Shown: piece by piece, positions 2,760 through 21,889 of the stretch | Position numbering within the stretch: the stretch's first letter is position 1 | How the letters are laid out: each line of letters begins with the position of its first letter | The notes under the pieces: generated by a model | What the model was told of the DNA's origin: nothing | The model's input: the letters and a program-made list of their open reading frames with translations, nothing else | Databases searched by the model: none | Position numbers and translations under genes: made by a program | DNA from: an uncultured archaeon | GTDB taxonomy: Archaea > Asgardarchaeota > Lokiarchaeia > Sigyniarchaeales > SOKP01 | Length of the DNA: 64,000 bases | Reading direction: 5' to 3' | Assembly: GCA_964486045.1 (NCBI GenBank) | Contig: CAZALK010000002.1 | Coordinates: 160,001-224,000 of the forward strand

Positions 2760-2905
2760 ACCAAATAAATACCTTTGTTTTGTAACTTCTTTTTATATCC
2801 ATAATGATTAAAGATTCTAAACATTGAATTTTTTAGAGAAAATACTTTAATTATTATATAAATAGTTTTAAAATATTTAATTTGAGCTTTTGAGGAAAAC
2901 TGATT

Positions 2906-4744
2906 ATGACTGATGATGATATTCAGGTGCCAAAATTAGATACAGGGAAAAATATAGCACATCAAGATATAAAATTTCCGTATTCTTGGTTCTTGTTGGT
3001 CTTCTTTACAATTTATCTTACCTCCCTTTTAGTTCCAACATTTTTATTCATGACATATATCTTTCTTTTTTTCTTGCCTAATTTTTTAGAAGTATCAAAT
3101 TTTTTAACACTTTTCACTGAGATTAAACCAATTCTCGCAATAATTTCTATGCCTTTAGTAATCATAGGGTGTTATTTAATCCGTTTATTTTTTGTTGGGC
3201 TGACAACACGGTTTTTTTGGAGATTGAGTGAAAGGAAGTCTCCCAGTAAAGATGGGATAATTCCAAGGAATTTTCCGAGTAGAACTCTTAATTATTATCA
3301 TATTCGAGGTTTTATGATAAAATATGGAAAGAACACATTTAATAAAGGAGCCTTCCCTTGGCTAAGCAATTGGTTTTACAATTTTGTAGGTTCAAGTGTG
3401 ATTGGAAAAGGATCAACCTTGGAGGAGAGTATATGCAATGAAAAATTTGCTATCGTTGGAAAAAATTGTTATTTTGGTGCAAGTTCGGCTTTAGCGACTC
3501 ATCTGGTTGATGGGACTTTTGGAAACATAAATTATTTTCATATCAAAGTTGGAGATAATGTAACTTTTGCTGGTACAAATTTAATTGCAGCAGGATCAGA
3601 GGTACATGATAATTCGTATTTGCTTCCTTTAGCTTCCGCAGGAAAACATAGCATATTAAAAGGGAATAATTATTATTGGGGAATCCCTTTAAGAAAAATA
3701 TTTCGGAAGAAAACTATGGGGTATTTGAAAATAACACCAAAGGAATTAGAAATAAATGAGAACATTGCTGGATATCTCGAGAAAGATGCAATGGAAAAAC
3801 TAAAAATTGAGAATATTTTAGGACCATTTAACGAATCAATTGAAAAGGAGCAAGAAAATATTGAAGAAAATGAAGAAAATGAGGAAAATATTGATATAAA
3901 TAGATTAAAAGAAGAAGATTTAGCAATAGACTTCACAACAAGTAGTGCAATTTCTAAGCTGAATATAAAGTTTCTAGTAGTGTACATCCCAATTTTTTGG
4001 TTATCTGGTATGTTGGATACAATTATATTTTACTCATTCATTTCTTTTGTAGGAAATGTATTTTTGAAGATATTCTTTCTCCCCACAATTATAATTATTA
4101 TGTGGTTTATATTTATATTAGGCTGCTTCTTTTTTAGCAAATTATTTCTAATTTTAATAAACTTAATTCATAGACCAAGAGAAGGGGTTTTTAAAGCTGA
4201 AATTGGGAATCCTGATTTTGAATTTTGGATGTTAAGAACTGAATTGAAAAAAGTTGTGCTATGGCTTATACGGAACTGGCCCATTCCCTGGATGGATATA
4301 TTAGCATTTAAGTGGTATGGTATAAAAATGACCTTAACAAGTTCATTATATGATTCTTGGTGTGATGGAGAATTTATAACATTTGGACGAAGAGTCTTAG
4401 TAGGGCAAGGTTCACATATCATGTCAAGCATGGTAGTCGGCCGCTACTTGATTATAAAGAAAGTAATTTGTGGTGATTATTCTCTTATTGGAGGACATTC
4501 GACAATAGCACCAGGTACAATAATTGGAGAGGATACTTTTGTCAGTGCTATTTCTACATCTATGTATTCTCAAATTTTAGAACCCGGATGGATATACTTT
4601 GGTATTCCATGCATTAAAATGAAGCCAAACAAATACTCTGAATCCGAAAGAGAGATCCTTATAAAAAGAGATGTAGATGAAGCAAAGAAATATACAATTC
4701 AGCACGAGGTTAATATTGATGATGATAAGAAAGACCTTGTGTAA
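2906..4744 (+). CDS. Membrane protein with two (TM + LbH hexapeptide acyltransferase-like) modules
   Basis: Two hydrophobic TM blocks, each followed by hexapeptide repeats (IGKGST, VGKNCYFG, VGDNVT; FGRRVLVGQG, CGDYSLIGG, IGEDTFV) ending in YWGIP / YFGIP. Confidence 0.75.
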   Translation: MTDDDIQVPKLDTGKNIAHQDIKFPYSWFLLVFFTIYLTSLLVPTFLFMTYIFLFFLPNFLEVSNFLTLFTEIKPILAIISMPLVIIGCYLIRLFFVGLTTRFFWRLSERKSPSKDGIIPRNFPSRTLNYYHIRGFMIKYGKNTFNKGAFPWLSNWFYNFVGSSVIGKGSTLEESICNEKFAIVGKNCYFGASSALATHLVDGTFGNINYFHIKVGDNVTFAGTNLIAAGSEVHDNSYLLPLASAGKHSILKGNNYYWGIPLRKIFRKKTMGYLKITPKELEINENIAGYLEKDAMEKLKIENILGPFNESIEKEQENIEENEENEENIDINRLKEEDLAIDFTTSSAISKLNIKFLVVYIPIFWLSGMLDTIIFYSFISFVGNVFLKIFFLPTIIIIMWFIFILGCFFFSKLFLILINLIHRPREGVFKAEIGNPDFEFWMLRTELKKVVLWLIRNWPIPWMDILAFKWYGIKMTLTSSLYDSWCDGEFITFGRRVLVGQGSHIMSSMVVGRYLIIKKVICGDYSLIGGHSTIAPGTIIGEDTFVSAISTSMYSQILEPGWIYFGIPCIKMKPNKYSESEREILIKRDVDEAKKYTIQHEVNIDDDKKDLV

Positions 4745-12299: not shown

Positions 12300-12486
12300 A
12301 TAAACGCCTTTTTTACATTTCAGTATATATATTATGGTTTTTTGGATTTTTTTTTCAACAAAAAATTCCTTAGAAATATTAGATTTTTACTGGTTATAAA
12401 TCTTCTAATTTTCTAAATTAAACTAGTTTCAAATTTAATCAAAAGACAATCTAACTTGAAAATTTATAGTCTGTAAATTCCCCTCT

Positions 12487-12630
12487 TTATTCACTAAAAT
12501 CCAGTTTTTCCTTACCATTTACAATTTTAAAATTGATAATATTATTGTTGGGAGGTTTTTTTTCTTCGATTTCTTGTTCTTCAATATCGATTATTTTAGG
12601 AATTGATTCCTCATTATTTTTCTGATTCAT
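12487..12630 (-). other. 47-aa ORF, possibly the N-terminal remnant of a longer gene
   Basis: Manual translation MNQKNNEESIPKIIDIEEQEIEEKKPPNNNIINFKIVNGKEKLDFSE*; protein-like composition, no recognisable domain. Confidence 0.3.
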
Positions 12631-12757
12631 TTAATTGTCCTGTTTTATTCAATTTCAGAAACGACTGATCAACATAGAAGTGTTAAATGATTATTTTAAA
12701 TAATTAATCTACCTATTATTAAATTAATTGTTTAAAGAATAAATTTCGAAATCTCTA

Positions 12758-12961
12758 ATGATATCAAAATTAATGATTGTAAAATCTAATGGACTACTTT
12801 GCTATTCAAAAACATTTCATGGAGAGGATATACTTGATGATGGTTCCATAAACGGCTTTCTTTCAACTACTTTAGATATTTCTCAAAAAATTGGGGGTGG
12901 TGAAATAAGATCACGCAATTTCAGAAAAAGCAAAAGCAAAAATTTATTCAAATTTAATTAA
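12758..12961 (+). pseudogene. Truncated longin-like domain (N-terminal half)
   Basis: MISKLMIVKSNGLLCYSKTF...DDGSINGFLST...ISQKIGGGEIRS matches the strand-strand-helix start of Asgard longin-type domains, then runs into A-rich sequence and stops. Confidence 0.55.
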
Positions 12962-13007
12962 TATGTTGAGTAAAATCATAATAGAATAGAAAAAACATTT
13001 GTAATTT

Positions 13008-13499
13008 ATGAAGTTCGAAGAAAATTTTATATTCCCTGTATATATCTATCAAGAGGTTATAGAAACAATTAAGATATTGTGTAGTAAATCAATTTCAGAG
13101 ATTTTTGGGTATCTTATAGGTTCTATTTTAATATGGAATAATGTTATTTATATAATTATTGAAGAATCAATTTTTCTTGAAGATATTATATATAGTGACA
13201 AATTTTTAACATCTCAAATAGTAGGAACTGCGGGAGCATATCAAAAAGAATTTGACCGGCTAAAAAAAATGAGAAGAAAAAAGAATTTAAGAATCGTTGG
13301 ATGGTGGCATTCTCACCCCGATTTTGGATGTTTCTTATCATCCACCGATTTACTTACTCAAAAATATTTTTTTCATAAATCGTTTCAAGTAGCGATGGTT
13401 GTTGATCCAAGTAGAAATGAATTTGAATTTTTTACTCTTGATCTTCATACAAAAATAGGTTACAAATCAGTCAGTTATGCAATTATAGCTAAAAATTGA
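13008..13499 (+). CDS. JAB/MPN+ (JAMM) metalloprotease, Rpn11-like deubiquitinase/maturase
   Basis: EIFGYLIG...VGWWHSHPDFGCFLSSTD (E...HxH-x7-S-x2-D), then MVVDP. Confidence 0.95.
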   Translation: MKFEENFIFPVYIYQEVIETIKILCSKSISEIFGYLIGSILIWNNVIYIIIEESIFLEDIIYSDKFLTSQIVGTAGAYQKEFDRLKKMRRKKNLRIVGWWHSHPDFGCFLSSTDLLTQKYFFHKSFQVAMVVDPSRNEFEFFTLDLHTKIGYKSVSYAIIAKN

Positions 13500-14413
13500 T
13501 CTTAAAACCTAAAGAAGAAATGTCTAAAAAAGATACAGATTTTGAAGAGTTCTCCTTATATGGAATTGAATCAGTGGATTCAGATATGTTTGATCGTCAA
13601 AAAAGAATCAAAGGATGGGATCAGGCAAGAATTAACAATTCTACAGTAATGGTCATCGGCGCGGGGGCCATTGGAAACGAGTTAGTAAAAAATTTAGTTC
13701 TAATCGGAATAGGAAAAATAATTTTAATTGATTATGATTTCATAAATACTTCAAATTTAAATAGATGCGTTCTATTTAATATAAAGGATACTAAACAAGA
13801 AGTGTATAAAGTAGATGCCATAAAGGAAGCATGTACAATACTAAATCCGAATACCGAAATAATTTCAATCAAAAAAAAACTAGAAGATATTGAAAAAACA
13901 CTTTACACTAGATCTGACGTAATATGTTCATGTGTTGATAATATTGAATCAAGATTGGAAGCGAATAATTATGCTTATTATTATAACATCCCTTTTGTTG
14001 ACGCAGGGATTGATGAATTCTTTGGTAGCCTCCAATCGGTATATTCTGAGGTAAAGGAAGCTGCTTGTTTCCAATGTAATATTACCGATTTAGACCTAGA
14101 TATAATGTGGAAAAAATATTCGTGCACGGGTCAAGAGATTGATAATGAAAATGGTGAAACTTTTGGAATAATTGCTTCGATCATCTCAACTACTTCAATT
14201 ATAGGAGGATTACAGTCACACCAAGTTCTAAAATTCCTATTAGGACTAGAATATTTTAAGGAACATAAAAAATGGAACCCTTATATTGGCCAACCATTAA
14301 TTGGGAAACAATTAAATTATAATGGAATATTAAACAGTTTCAAAATCGTTGAAAAGGTAAAAAATCCTGAATGTTGGACATGTTCCTTTAAAAAAGCCCA
14401 ACCTACTAAATAA
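13496..14413 (+). CDS. Ubiquitin-activating E1-like enzyme (ThiF/UBA family)
   Basis: FDRQ, GAGAIG, SNLNR, CVDN, CFQC and CWTC zinc pairs, candidate catalytic Cys in YSCT; overlaps the JAB stop (TTGA). Confidence 0.93.
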   Translation: MILKPKEEMSKKDTDFEEFSLYGIESVDSDMFDRQKRIKGWDQARINNSTVMVIGAGAIGNELVKNLVLIGIGKIILIDYDFINTSNLNRCVLFNIKDTKQEVYKVDAIKEACTILNPNTEIISIKKKLEDIEKTLYTRSDVICSCVDNIESRLEANNYAYYYNIPFVDAGIDEFFGSLQSVYSEVKEAACFQCNITDLDLDIMWKKYSCTGQEIDNENGETFGIIASIISTTSIIGGLQSHQVLKFLLGLEYFKEHKKWNPYIGQPLIGKQLNYNGILNSFKIVEKVKNPECWTCSFKKAQPTK

Positions 14414-14478
14414 TGTAAAAACGTAATGTAAATTTAAAATTAAATAATAAAATAAATTAATGAAAGGGGTACGATATT

Positions 14479-15042
14479 CTGCCAGAGCTTCCTTTTGAAA
14501 TATGGAAAGAAAGAATTGATAATGAAATTATAAACATTAAAAAATTAAATGTTCTTGAAAAAGACTCCATAAATCGAAGTGAAGATAGTGTTGAACTAAT
14601 TTTGAATGTGAAAGCATTAGGATTTATTATGAAAAAATCAGAATTAATTCCAAAAGATTCTCATAAAATCTATTTAAAACTAAATCGAATGTTCCCTTAT
14701 CCTGGAGGAATTAGTTTTTCATGGCTTACTGAACTATTTCACCCGAATATTCATTCAATTGACGTACCTTATACTAGTAAACAAGGAACGGGATTCATAT
14801 GCTTAAATATTTTAAAAAAGTGGTCTCGATTATCTGATTTAGTCACAATTGTTAAAGCCTTAAAAATTTTAGTGGAAAATCCAAATCCCGATGATCCTCT
14901 CGATTATCCCCATTGTTTAGAAGCGGCAAAGTACTTTTCGAAGCACAATATTAAGAAATTAAAAAAGAAATATTCATTCATAATTGATCTTCAAGACCTG
15001 GACAACGAAGAAGATGATGAAATTGTAATTATTGATGAGTAA
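14479..15042 (+). CDS. Ubiquitin-conjugating E2 (UBC fold) with acidic tail
   Basis: FPYP, LFHPNI...GFICLNILKKWS, NPNPDDPL. Frame is open upstream of 14602 and encodes an E2-like helix 1 (WKERIDNEI); start proposed at CTG 14479. Confidence 0.9.
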   Translation: MPELPFEIWKERIDNEIINIKKLNVLEKDSINRSEDSVELILNVKALGFIMKKSELIPKDSHKIYLKLNRMFPYPGGISFSWLTELFHPNIHSIDVPYTSKQGTGFICLNILKKWSRLSDLVTIVKALKILVENPNPDDPLDYPHCLEAAKYFSKHNIKKLKKKYSFIIDLQDLDNEEDDEIVIIDE

Positions 15043-15054
15043 TAAAAATAATTT

Positions 15055-15318
15055 CTATACTTTTAATCCACCAATAACCCTTGTCCATAAAGTTAAGGTT
15101 TCGTTCTCTTTCAATCCATATTTATGAATGGCATCAGAAACTGTAATTTTATTAGGCAATTCTTTATCATTAATAACTAATGTATAAGAACGTTGTTCAG
15201 AACTAATTATACCCATATGTTTTACGATAATATCAATGATTCTTTCTATTTGGTGATGATCTTTTACATCTAGCTTTATGATTTTTCCTGTTCTTGAATC
15301 CTCAACCGAAATTTTCAA
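15055..15318 (-). CDS. Ubiquitin-like protein precursor (GG followed by LKV)
   Basis: Beta-grasp pattern MKISVEDSRTGKIIKLDV...YGLKENETLTLWTRVIGG-LKV; convergent with the E2 gene; TTG start. Confidence 0.88.
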   Translation of the reverse strand: MKISVEDSRTGKIIKLDVKDHHQIERIIDIIVKHMGIISSEQRSYTLVINDKELPNKITVSDAIHKYGLKENETLTLWTRVIGGLKV

Positions 15319-15352
15319 ATTATTTTACGCCTTCTATTTTGTGTTTTAAATA

Positions 15353-16852
15353 TTAATTATAACAATTTATTTTTCTACTTCTAATAAATATTATTACTCC
15401 TATCAAAATAATACTTACAAATCCGACGGTTAAAAAAACTTCAATTCCTAATCCAATGATGTTTTCCGAAGCAGAATTACTTTTAATCCCGAAGGAGTAA
15501 TAAATATCCAATTCATTATTTCGACCATCTGTCCAAACAACATGGGGGATCATAGATTGATCAAGTCGAATAGTAAGATAATCTCCTGGTCTAAAGAAAG
15601 AACCGGAAGTTTCTTCACTTGCGATCGCGATTGGGGTATTAAAGACTGGATTATCTCGATTTTCCCCAGAAAAGTTAACTAAGCAATAGTAAGGTTTGAA
15701 ATTTCCATGAGATGGAGCGTTATAGTAGACAATATGTAAATTTCCATCAGAATCGATGTCCATATCAGGCATCCATTGATCTCCAGCGGTAATTGGATTT
15801 ACCTGAAAGCGATTACTCCAACTTCCACCAAAATCATCTGAATATCGGAGATAAACATCAATTGAATGATCTCTACTCTCAAATGTATCTGCCCATAATA
15901 AATAGAGCCTATCGTCCTGATCAGTTCGAAGAACTGGAATTGTAGCTTTACCTGAGCCAAAAAAGGAATAATTTCCATCAGTGTTAACAAAACTTTGGTT
16001 TTCAAAAGTAAATCCACCATCTAGACTACTGGTAAAGTAAAGATTCCCTCCTCCGCTTAGAATATCAAGCCAAGTTGATGCGATGTAGATGTTATTTTCA
16101 CTATTTAAGGTTATATATGGAGCAAGATGCCCATCTGATGGTTCTCCTAGTACAGAGATTTCTTGAAAGCTTTCTCCTTTATCTATTGAACGTGTTAATC
16201 GAATTGTTACGTTTCCTTCTGGAATACTAGCATCAGCATCATCATACACAACATAAATTGTTCCGTTATCATCGATATTCATTGTTTCTTTATCTGCAAA
16301 AAATGATCCATTTGACGCTGATGTGGTAGTCCACTCAGTTATATCACCACTACTTTTGGCTACAGTTACTTGAGATAAATAATTAGTTGTAAAAAATTGA
16401 AAATATTCGGGTTGCCATTCGATATATGCGTAGTAGATACTCTGATTATGCCAAATTAGCCACGGATCTGATTGATCGGTATTTAACCCATTATACATTG
16501 GCATGTCAAATGGAACTGTCCAAGAAACTCCTTTATCTGTAGATTTTACGATACTTACATGTCTTCCTCCACCACTGTGAGTATCTGCGTTCTTCCAGCC
16601 TACAAAAAGTACCCCCGTTTCACTAACAGCGATCGTTGGTTCTACGTGATGATCCCAATTACTATCATCTGTTGATAATAATGCATTCTTGGAAAATCCT
16701 TCAGTTTGAAAAGAAATATCTTGAGCGGATCTTGGTGAACCAATATTTAGATAATTTGCTAAATCGGTGGAATGTAAAAATCCAATAGGTAACATCATAA
16801 AAGCTAAAATTAAGATGAATATTAATTTATACTGCTTTTTAAATTTGAACAT
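15353..16852 (-). CDS. Membrane-anchored BNR/Asp-box (sialidase-like) beta-propeller surface protein
   Basis: Asp boxes STDKGVSW, SIDKGESF, SLDGGFTF, SDDFGGSW; N-terminal signal/TM; C-terminal TM with basic tail. Confidence 0.8.
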   Translation of the reverse strand: MFKFKKQYKLIFILILAFMMLPIGFLHSTDLANYLNIGSPRSAQDISFQTEGFSKNALLSTDDSNWDHHVEPTIAVSETGVLFVGWKNADTHSGGGRHVSIVKSTDKGVSWTVPFDMPMYNGLNTDQSDPWLIWHNQSIYYAYIEWQPEYFQFFTTNYLSQVTVAKSSGDITEWTTTSASNGSFFADKETMNIDDNGTIYVVYDDADASIPEGNVTIRLTRSIDKGESFQEISVLGEPSDGHLAPYITLNSENNIYIASTWLDILSGGGNLYFTSSLDGGFTFENQSFVNTDGNYSFFGSGKATIPVLRTDQDDRLYLLWADTFESRDHSIDVYLRYSDDFGGSWSNRFQVNPITAGDQWMPDMDIDSDGNLHIVYYNAPSHGNFKPYYCLVNFSGENRDNPVFNTPIAIASEETSGSFFRPGDYLTIRLDQSMIPHVVWTDGRNNELDIYYSFGIKSNSASENIIGLGIEVFLTVGFVSIILIGVIIFIRSRKINCYN

Positions 16853-19347: not shown

Positions 19348-20607
19348 GTGAAATTGAGAGATATTAACCCTTTTGAAAGTGCGAAAAAGAAACTTGATAT
19401 AGCTGCGAATGTGATTGATTTAGATGAAAATACTTTAAAGTATTTAAAGAAAGTGGAACGTAGTTTAATAGTTTCTATACCTGTGGTAATGGATAACGGA
19501 TCTCTTCAGATTTTTGAAGGTTACAGAGTTCATCATTCTACATTGCGCGGGCCTGGCAAAGGTGGTTTAAGATATTCACCCGATGTAACTCTTGATGAAA
19601 TTAAGGCATTAGCTTTCCTGATGACTTTTAAAACGAGCTTGTTAGAATTACCTTTAGGTGGTTCAAAAGGCGGAGTTCGTGTTGATAAAAAAAAGTTATC
19701 CTTAAACGAATTGAGACATCTCACGAGAAGATATACTTCAGAAATCTTAAACATGATTGGGGAAGATATTGACATTTTAGCTCCAGATATGAATACAGGA
19801 GAGCAGGAAATGGCCTGGATTATGGATACTTATTCAATGAATAAAGGTAAGCCATCTCCGGGTGTAGTTACAGGAAAGCCTATAGAGATAGGGGGGACAG
19901 TCGGACGTACCGACGCACCTGGGACGGGAATGTTTTATATTCTTGAAACCTTATGTGAAAGGCAAAATTTCAGTTTAAAATCTAGTAAAGTTGCTATTCA
20001 AGGTTTCGGAAAAGTTGGGAAGGTTGTTGCTCAAATTTTAAATAATGTAGGTTGTAATATTATTGCCATCACTGATTCAGAAGGTGGAGTTTATTCTGAT
20101 AAAGGTTTAAACATAAATAAACTAATCAATTGGAAACAAAAAGGTAACTCATTAAAGGATCACGAAAGGAGTAATATTAAAGTCATAACGAATGAAGAAT
20201 TACTATGTACAAAATGTGATATACTCATTCCTGCTGCAATAGAGAACCAGATTTTTAGTAAGAATGCTGATAATATTGACTGCAAAATTATATTAGAAGG
20301 TGCAAACAGTCCAACCACATCTCAAGCAGATGAGATACTAAAAGAAAAAGGAATAATTATTATCCCAGATATTTTGGCTAACGCAGGTGGTTTATGTGTG
20401 TCATATTTCGAATATATTCAAGATCTACATTCATACTTTTGGAACCTTGAAAGAGTTAATAGAGAGATGAAAAGAATTTTGCTCAGAGCTTTTGAATCAA
20501 TCTTAAATTTATCAAGCGAAAAAGAAATAACATATAGAACAGCTGCATACATTATTGGAGCAGAAAGATTAGCAAAAGCACATGAGTTAAGGGGACTATT
20601 TCCATGA
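19348..20607 (+). CDS. Glutamate dehydrogenase family protein, divergent copy (possibly regulatory)
   Basis: GPGKGGLR, GGSKGG, APDMNT, GFGKVG, PDILANAGG, RGLFP. Confidence 0.9.
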   Translation: MKLRDINPFESAKKKLDIAANVIDLDENTLKYLKKVERSLIVSIPVVMDNGSLQIFEGYRVHHSTLRGPGKGGLRYSPDVTLDEIKALAFLMTFKTSLLELPLGGSKGGVRVDKKKLSLNELRHLTRRYTSEILNMIGEDIDILAPDMNTGEQEMAWIMDTYSMNKGKPSPGVVTGKPIEIGGTVGRTDAPGTGMFYILETLCERQNFSLKSSKVAIQGFGKVGKVVAQILNNVGCNIIAITDSEGGVYSDKGLNINKLINWKQKGNSLKDHERSNIKVITNEELLCTKCDILIPAAIENQIFSKNADNIDCKIILEGANSPTTSQADEILKEKGIIIIPDILANAGGLCVSYFEYIQDLHSYFWNLERVNREMKRILLRAFESILNLSSEKEITYRTAAYIIGAERLAKAHELRGLFP

Positions 20608-20638
20608 TAAGAAAAAAATGCAAAAAAGGTGAAATAGC

Positions 20639-21889
20639 TTGGAATTAAATCCTTTTGAAGTAGCAAAGGAGCAAATTGATATCGTGGCCAAAGAGATGGG
20701 ATTAGATCCTAATATAACTCGATACCTCAAGAAAATTGAGAAAGCATTAATCGTGTCCATTCCAATAATGATGGACAATGGTTCTCTTCAGATTTTTGAA
20801 GGTTATAGAGTTCATCATTCGACAGTTCGAGGACCAGGAAAGGGAGGTATAAGATATGCTCCAAATGTGAATCTTGATGAAGTGAAGGCTTTAGCTACTT
20901 GGATGACATGGAAATGTAGTCTCTTAAAATTACCCTTTGGAGGAGCTAAAGGAGGAATCTGTGTAAATCCTAGAGAATTATCAAAGAAGGAATTAGAAAA
21001 ACTTACGAGGAGATATGCATCCGAGATTATTAACTTTATTGGACCTAATATCGATGTCCCTGCTCCAGATGTTAATACAAATGCACAGATCATGGCTTGG
21101 ATTATGGATACTTACAGTATGAACAAGGGGAGGGCTGTACCAGGAGTCGTTACTGGAAAACCGGTGGAAATTGGTGGCTCAGTCGGAAGAAATTCTGCGA
21201 CAGGGAGGGGTCTATACTTTGTTATTGACGCAATGTGTAAGAAATTAAATATAAGCTTGGAATCACAAAAAATTATTATTCAAGGTTTTGGAAACGTTGG
21301 AGGTTGGATAGCAAATCTTTTATACGAACGAGGTTGTAAAATTTTAGCAGTTTCTGATATATCTAGTGGAATATATTATTCAGAAGGATTAGAAATAAAT
21401 AAATTATTAGATTGGGTTCATAGTGGCAATTTTTTGAAGGATTATAAAGATCAGAGATATAAATTGATTTCAAATAATGATCTTCTTACAAGCGATTGCG
21501 ATATCCTAATTCCTGCAGCTCTAGAAAACCAGATAACAGAAGCAAATGCCAATGAGATTAGATGTAAGATTGTTCTAGAAGGTGCAAATGGACCAACAAC
21601 ACCAGAAGCAGATAAAATTCTATTTAACAAAGGAATTCATTTGATCCCAGATATTCTTTCCAACGCAGGAGGGGTATGTGTTTCTTATTTTGAATATGTT
21701 CAAGATATACGTGCTTACTTCTGGGATTTAGATCGTATTAATAAGGAACTAAAAAGAATGATTCTAGAAGCATTTGAGGAAGTATATAAATTACATAAAA
21801 TGAGAGAAATACCTCTCCGTACAGCAGCCTATATAATTGCAGTGCAAAGAATTGCTAGAGCAATAGAATTAAGGGGAATCTTTCCTTAA
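20639..21889 (+). CDS. gdhA: Glutamate dehydrogenase, canonical copy
   Basis: GPGKGGIR, MTWKC, GGAKGG, PAPDVNT, GRNSATGRG, GFGNVG, EGANGPTT; GGTGA then TTG start. Confidence 0.93.
   Translation: MELNPFEVAKEQIDIVAKEMGLDPNITRYLKKIEKALIVSIPIMMDNGSLQIFEGYRVHHSTVRGPGKGGIRYAPNVNLDEVKALATWMTWKCSLLKLPFGGAKGGICVNPRELSKKELEKLTRRYASEIINFIGPNIDVPAPDVNTNAQIMAWIMDTYSMNKGRAVPGVVTGKPVEIGGSVGRNSATGRGLYFVIDAMCKKLNISLESQKIIIQGFGNVGGWIANLLYERGCKILAVSDISSGIYYSEGLEINKLLDWVHSGNFLKDYKDQRYKLISNNDLLTSDCDILIPAALENQITEANANEIRCKIVLEGANGPTTPEADKILFNKGIHLIPDILSNAGGVCVSYFEYVQDIRAYFWDLDRINKELKRMILEAFEEVYKLHKMREIPLRTAAYIIAVQRIARAIELRGIFP

Follow-up and report, generated by a model that had tools for sequence, protein, structure and literature searches.

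A conserved ubiquitin-like pathway of Lokiarchaeia with probable membrane RING-like partners, damaged in one strain

The genes for a ubiquitin-like modifier (Ubl), a JAMM protease, an E1 and an E2 that lie together in a 64,000-nucleotide stretch of an uncultured Loki-type Asgard archaeon (the window) belong to a ubiquitin-like pathway that is conserved in two families of Lokiarchaeia. To judge from its enzymes, this pathway appears to be distinct from the genome's other Ubl systems, and we consider it rather probable that it is a dedicated, RING-assisted and membrane-linked archaeal pathway that has been damaged in this strain. An earlier note on this DNA had proposed, as one of two options, a system that needs no E3 and is possibly antiviral; that appearance arose by chance, through gene loss in a single strain.

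The locus and its four proteins

The source genome comprises 5.18 Mb at 31% GC, and the window corresponds to positions 160001-224000 of its contig C2. All four ORFs of the system were confirmed where the earlier note had placed them (Table 1): JAB (JAMM protease), E1 and E2 are co-oriented, and the Ubl gene, which ends in GG-LKV and lies 34 bp downstream of a surface-protein gene, is convergent to them. The Pfam E-values are 5e-10 (JAB), 3e-45 (ThiF) and 6e-10 (UQ_con), and the claim of a complete conjugation and deconjugation set with a Gly-Gly modifier and a cleavable tail is supported. Contigs from two sequencing runs of one study, one of them possibly the source of this DNA, span 12300-15500 unbroken.

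Some gene models had to be corrected. The E2 gene had been listed with a start at TTG 14602, and an ORF from there would be without helix 1; the frame is open further upstream, the orthologues begin M-P-E-L-P at the position of CTG 14479 in the alignment, and the gene starts at this CTG. For the E1, ATG 13520, a conserved Met in the orthologues, is the most likely start. An ORF absent from the earlier note was recognized as the 5' remnant of a longin-GTPase gene. Elsewhere in the window (19348-21889), two glutamate-dehydrogenase-like genes of 419 and 416 aa, judged by eye, lie in tandem.

Table 1. Features of the locus and related genes of the same genome (window numbering unless a contig is named)
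Feature	Position	Strand	Remarks
Longin plus Arf-like G-domain gene, 5' remnant	12758..12961	+	Codons 1-56, then unrelated sequence
JAMM/MPN+ protease, Rpn11-like, 163 aa	13008..13499	+	PF01398; best PDB matches Rpn11 and Caldiarchaeum Rpn11
E1, single ThiF domain, ~297 aa	13520..14413	+	PF00899; longest ORF from TTG 13496
E2, UBC fold, 187 aa from CTG, acidic tail	14479..15042	+	PF00179
Ubiquitin-fold modifier (Ubl) precursor, 84 aa mature + LKV tail	15055..15318	-	Model matches ubiquitin
BNR-repeat surface protein, 499 aa, outside the system	15353..16852	-	Weak BNR matches
Membrane C4C4-finger gene	C19:8546-9660	+	In-frame TGA (9461)
Longin-GTPase paralogue	C19:9670-10602	-	Intact
Second E1/E2 set	C5:172904-177221		Ala-Gly Ubl, E1, E2, JAB, membrane protein with Cys-rich end
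Third E1/E2 set	C1:786638/789189

All four reading frames are intact, the proteins are 65-89% identical to those of near relatives, and the catalytic residues of JAMM, E1 and E2 are invariant across 37-40 orthologues. The predicted fold of the Ubl (pLDDT 84) matches ubiquitin with an E-value of 9e-8 and a TM of about 0.73, and its top fold matches are ubiquitin and NEDD8; in Pfam no match lies above the cut-off (Rad60-SLD reaches just E 0.045). The Gly-Gly is invariant and the Ubl is 70-90% identical across genera. The tail behind it varies from 0 to 9 aa in enzyme-linked orthologues and is absent in 8 of 35, and therefore the conserved job of the JAMM protease probably includes tag removal. 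In the protease itself, E31, H101, H103, S111 and D114 are invariant in 37 orthologues, so that the metal site is intact.

The E1, whose best matches are UBA1/ThiF, retains both CxxC pairs and a putative catalytic Cys210 (in SCTG; numbering from 13496), which are invariant in the orthologues. Because only 9 residues follow its last CxxC (84 and 99 in the two further Ubl E1s that the genome encodes), it is without a C-terminal ubiquitin-fold domain. The E2 has Rad6, UBE2C and Ubc13 as top matches, and its HPN motif and catalytic Cys are invariant in 40 orthologues. Loop 4 reads FPYPGG, with a Pro-Tyr pair that is invariant among orthologues, and loop 7 reads WSRL without Pro, the pattern WS[RQKL]L being found in 40 of 40 orthologues; the protein also has residues inserted behind HPN, and its acidic tail is conserved.

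Distribution and phylogenetic separateness

Orthologues of the E2 were found in 32 of 36 genomes of the genus and 3 of 4 of family f4, and in none of 14 genomes of family f2, the order's other large family, among them single-contig genomes of 4.4 and 6.0 Mb. The Ubl profile gave the same picture, with matches in 72 of 134 genomes of family f1 (~54%), 4 of 4 of f4 and 0 of 14 of f2. Across 301 genomes drawn from the phylum, matches to the E2 profile were confined to family f1, f4 having been assessed separately. The order JAB>E1>E2 facing the Ubl is kept at 28 of 30 loci, with one further locus cut by a contig end. In f4 (Sigynarchaeum-type genomes) a JAB-E1 pair, an E2 and a Ubl are all present but scattered, and in the regions read no GTPase or RING gene lies near the E2 or the Ubl. 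No link to ESCRT was seen in the loci read.

The genome has three separate E1/E2 pairs, in the window, on C5 and on C1, as well as a free Ubl on C10. The E1 and the E2 of the window each form a clade with support of 100 on a long stem, apart from the C5 and C1 enzymes, and the E1 tree follows host families. These trees, built with Asgard enzymes and with midpoint roots and an E1 bootstrap that is not fully settled, show separateness within archaea only.

Several other Ubl genes and E1s of these genomes are worth recording. The E2/E1 clade of the C5 system, whose tags end in Ala-Gly, is shared with other Asgard classes, and this system (C5:167100-168323 and 172904-177221) also includes a further Ubl paralogue and a Ubl with a membrane anchor. 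Sigynarchaeum-type genomes encode E1s of 730-985 aa with two ThiF domains, one of them fast-evolving, like the eukaryotic monomeric UBA1 (L229:691-3471 and L227:733-3111, both on the minus strand, in G039:C61 and G045:C1; also G041:C282 and G043:C237); both halves of these proteins group with a single-domain Loki E1 of 527 aa. Three long proteins, P0124 (L299:6001-7980), P0130 (L114:5911-7539) and P0133 (L300:6001-7773), carry a Ubl of the window family in which an intact Gly-Gly is trailed by 340-560 unknown residues, and they may be pro-proteins that the JAMM cleaves; P0130 carries a tandem of two different Ubls, and P0133 a GIY-YIG-like stretch, recognized by eye. Ubl domains of the window family that do not end in Gly-Gly occur in fusions (P0125, P0135, P0136, P0139 and P0140) with a TIR-like domain plus C4C4 finger, longin, wHTH, LRR plus TIR, and TPR-like regions.

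Membrane RING-like fingers and the longin-GTPase

The earlier note had seen no RING gene in the window. This is true of the locus; however, the genome has three RING genes (PF13639) above the Pfam cut-off, and as a property of the system the lack of an E3 is not supported. At 28 of 36 orthologous loci a gene for a C4C4 RING-like finger lies within 5 kb of the E2, where about 2% would be expected by chance from its copy number, and at 15 of 33 it lies directly upstream of the Ubl on the same strand. Among these 28 near-E2 genes, 25 encode at least four predicted transmembrane segments; beside Lokiarchaeia clusters the finger sits at the C-terminus of polytopic membrane proteins. Of the 74 Ubl-positive genomes, 72 have strong finger matches, compared with 10 of the 87 Ubl-negative ones (161 in total, several of the negatives incomplete), and the median copy number is 5 against 1; these figures are descriptive and overstate the co-occurrence, because the finger profile derives from these very loci and kinship makes the genomes non-independent.

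The same partnership recurs at a distance. A search with the Ubl-family profile led to a distant Ubl in the L302 operon, which has a homologous E2 (hhalign 99.3%), JAB (35%) and E1 (39%) and a RING-like C4C4 ORF (2844-3125) that is uncalled in the database. Altogether five distant homologous loci have a RING-like gene (L302, L303/L309, L306, L323 and L322); they are non-Asgard or taxonomically unassigned, L322 being from Micrarchaeia. The six distant E2s tested group with the window E2 at 100/100, and the remainder match its profile. In these operons the RING-like proteins are small (78-109 aa) and free-standing, like the srfp of Caldiarchaeum. Membrane and zinc-ribbon proteins surround the distant Ubl-E2-JAB-E1 clusters. 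In addition, P0125 has two Ubl-like domains of the window family fused to a C4C4 finger.

An E3 function of the finger would be in keeping with this company, and it is inferred, as the matches of the finger are weak and mixed. In Pfam it resembles RING, C1, DZR and B-box domains, each only weakly, and its PDB matches comprise RING E3s (RBBP6, TRIM37, RNF4, MDM2) as well as PHDs and TFIIH p44. It has C-W-x-C in place of C-P-x-C, and its last Cys is not followed by a basic residue. On C1 of the present genome (892641-894314), a protein of 567 aa combines UEV-like repeats with a C-terminal RING-like finger.

The second recurrent partner is a longin-GTPase. An intact gene for it lies directly upstream of JAB, heading the enzyme operon, at 33 of 36 loci. 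In the window, 12758-12925 is 68% identical to residues 1-56 of a 291-aa orthologue, and no other pieces of the gene were found there. In the model of the intact protein, an Arf-like G domain accompanies an N-terminal alpha/beta domain whose topology suggests the longin type. The G domain has an intact G1 P-loop, no DxxG (G3) and ANFQD as G4, and thus departs from the canonical Arf/Rab/Rag switch set. At 10 or more paralogous loci, which possibly reflect few events, the GTPase still faces the Ubl after loss of JAB, E1 and E2. A predicted complex of E2, Ubl and longin-GTPase scored 0.61, compared with 0.56 when the E2 was swapped out, which is evidence neither way. The invariant Lys166 of the GTPase was set aside as an acceptor site, since small GTPases often have a Lys at that strand.

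Longin-GTPase fusions are already known as a class (10.1101/2020.10.19.343400). In one lineage (L057:3668-6310, L058-L060, L116, L123) proteins of 860-880 aa join the longin-GTPase to TPR-like repeats and a carbon-nitrogen hydrolase domain. Enzyme-less modules in which a membrane finger and a small membrane protein accompany a GTPase facing a Ubl are repeated at L102-L111, L116 and L124; they hold up to three Ubl copies per 20 kb, and most of these Ubls end exactly at GG.

In the present strain both partners are affected. The genome's only membrane C4C4-finger gene, convergent with the longin-GTPase paralogue on C19, has an in-frame TGA at the fifth Cys of the finger, a zinc ligand. A nonsense mutation is the simplest explanation, selenocysteine and an assembly error being the alternatives. 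The BNR surface-protein gene, whose product has an N-terminal hydrophobic segment and a C-terminal anchor, had a homologue in 0 of 60 relative loci and occupies the site where a RING gene often lies in relatives. Because of the lesions in the GTPase and membrane-RING genes and the strain-specific surface-protein gene, both the E3-less look of the locus and its link with a surface protein are features of one strain. The earlier note had named orthologous operons that normally include a RING E3 as the finding that would speak against it, and that is largely what the 28 orthologous loci, the co-occurrence in 161 genomes and the five distant loci present. Its alternative, a modifier that uses distant E3s, comes closer to the truth than E3 independence.

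A membrane-linked pathway and its alternatives

On the reading that we favour, the JAMM protease would trim the tail after the Gly-Gly and later strip the tag from its targets. The short E1, presumably a homodimer, would adenylate the tag, hold it on Cys210 and hand it to the E2 Cys. C4C4 RING-like fingers on polytopic membrane proteins would then normally aid transfer to lysines of targets near the membrane. The longin-GTPase is a likely substrate, tag-binder or regulator, and therefore the pathway probably signals at the membrane. As the GTPase gene has been deleted at the locus and the membrane-RING gene is interrupted, the pathway in this strain may use another RING, run weakly or be at the beginning of decay.

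A more far-reaching version, in which Lokiarchaeia made a signalling pathway at the membrane out of a simple archaeal Ubl system, is unlikely: the polytopic membrane RING proteins, up to 25 of them, would be sensor-ligases, and the longin-GTPase without DxxG would be switched by tagging or tag binding, not by normal GTP hydrolysis. If true, this would amount to a prokaryotic E3 expansion and to ubiquitin control of a small GTPase. Eukaryotic membrane RING E3s act on small GTPases, for example RNF152 on RagA. The likeness, offered as an analogy, lies in a membrane-anchored RING whose candidate target is a GTPase that has a longin/roadblock-type domain; topology and domain order differ and the archaeal G domain is without DxxG.

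Several observations count against RING assistance: the finger is only RING-like, the scattered Sigynarchaeum-type parts have no RING gene near the E2 or Ubl in the regions read, the core is intact in this strain without an intact membrane-RING gene, and the E2 has lost the loop-7 Pro that is present in nearly all other Asgard E2s sampled. The last two would suit an E3-independent cascade of the SUMO/Ubc9 kind, in which the E2 picks the substrates and the membrane C4C4 proteins serve as substrates or read the tag, as would the E2 insertion after HPN, the conserved acidic tail and the deviation of the finger from canonical RING motifs. In contrast, the loop-4 Pro-Tyr pair is invariant, and in Caldiarchaeum mutating this pair abolished RING-dependent transfer (PMC5654768); the small free-standing RING-like proteins of the distant operons also argue for RING assistance. 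The SUMO-like version proposed earlier is not supported by the proteins themselves: their best matches are ubiquitin and Rad6/UBE2C/Ubc13-type E2s, and neither Ubc9 nor SUMO is among the top matches. With loop-4 Pro-Tyr kept but loop-7 Pro lost, we regard E3 independence as unlikely while giving it some weight.

The remaining alternatives appear less probable. That this strain's cluster is an orphaned, non-working remnant, whatever its role in relatives, would accord with the deleted GTPase gene, the interrupted membrane-RING gene and the foreign gene inserted beside the Ubl, and the enzyme-less copies in many relatives imply that loss is common; however, four intact frames with all catalytic residues, the conservation relative to near relatives, the GTPase paralogue on C19 and several other RING genes in the genome make it improbable. 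More improbable still is a Bil-like antiviral system that tags virion proteins, which the earlier note had entertained. The four-part list of Ubl, E2, JAB and E1 is identical to that of BilABCD Type I/II, and BilD consists of an inactive and an active adenylation domain, in operons that lie in defence islands (10.1101/2023.09.26.559546). The window E1, in contrast, is a single ThiF domain of 297 aa without the inactive domain that defines BilD, and the E2 is a eukaryote-type UBC. Type I BilA is a double Ubl and some Bil Ubls are short-tailed (10.1101/2023.09.04.556158; 10.1101/2023.09.26.559546), whereas the window Ubl is single-domain and ends in GG. Bil genes are co-oriented as Ubl-E2-DUB-E1, while in Lokiarchaeia JAB>E1>E2 faces the Ubl; distant homologous operons run Ubl-E2-JAB as Bil does, the E1 lying downstream or close by, and one of them is near integrase genes; the L302 operon follows the Bil order in part. 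PADLOC gave 0 matches among 10 proteins (7 neighbours from the window, and 3 proteins that are partners or neighbours in relatives), a small sample set against a bacteria-centred library. No match was found, at the sensitivities used, in viral contigs (Ubl and E2 queries), plasmids (E2) or JGI metagenome contigs (distant E2), and the E2 search recovered no bacterial relatives. Inheritance along host families, seen in the E1 tree, and the close identity of the Ubl across genera also weigh against defence. Owing to the patchy presence of the system (about 54% of the family) and the Bil-like order in one distant homologue, we keep a defence role as a very slight likelihood.

The RING-assisted, membrane-linked pathway that we favour shares with the Ub-E2-E1-srfp plus Rpn11 operon of Caldiarchaeum and Asgard archaea (Clusters I-II; PMC5654768, PMC6043591) a Gly-Gly ubiquitin-fold tag with a pro-peptide, an Rpn11-like JAMM, an HPN-Cys E2 with loop-4 Pro-Tyr and, in homologous loci, a RING-like partner. 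It differs in that the window E1 is without their C-terminal ubiquitin-like domain, and the E2, with PYPGG and WSRL in place of PxxPP (loop 4) and WSP (loop 7), forms a separate long-stem clade. The RING gene of Clusters I-II has no counterpart at the window locus, and the RING-like finger of the orthologous and distant loci, with its weak matches, is C4C4 and, in Lokiarchaeia, membrane-bound; in addition, the tag gene faces its enzyme genes, the operon begins with a longin-GTPase gene and no ESCRT link was seen in the loci read. What defines Cluster III is that its E1 has no C-terminal ubiquitin-like domain; Ub, E2, JAB and a RING-like protein are the partners of this E1 (PMC5654768 Supplementary Note 4). 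The window E1, compared by description only, has this defining feature; the supplement mentions no GTPase (PMC5654768).

The present pathway, one of three E1/E2 pairs in the genome, stands out as a distinct clade and has a tag, E1, E2 and expanded RING-like family of its own. Asgard ubiquitin systems are usually drawn as one ESCRT-linked set of Ub, E1, E2, small RING and Rpn11. Asgard ubiquitin clusters are already known (PMC9192718, PMC10936438), and a literature search that covered few subscription papers found no description of this locus or gene combination. Should the membrane fingers prove to be ligases, an archaeon would have both E3 expansion and the coupling of ubiquitin to a GTPase, which are usually deemed eukaryotic, in a system that could be rebuilt from six small proteins.
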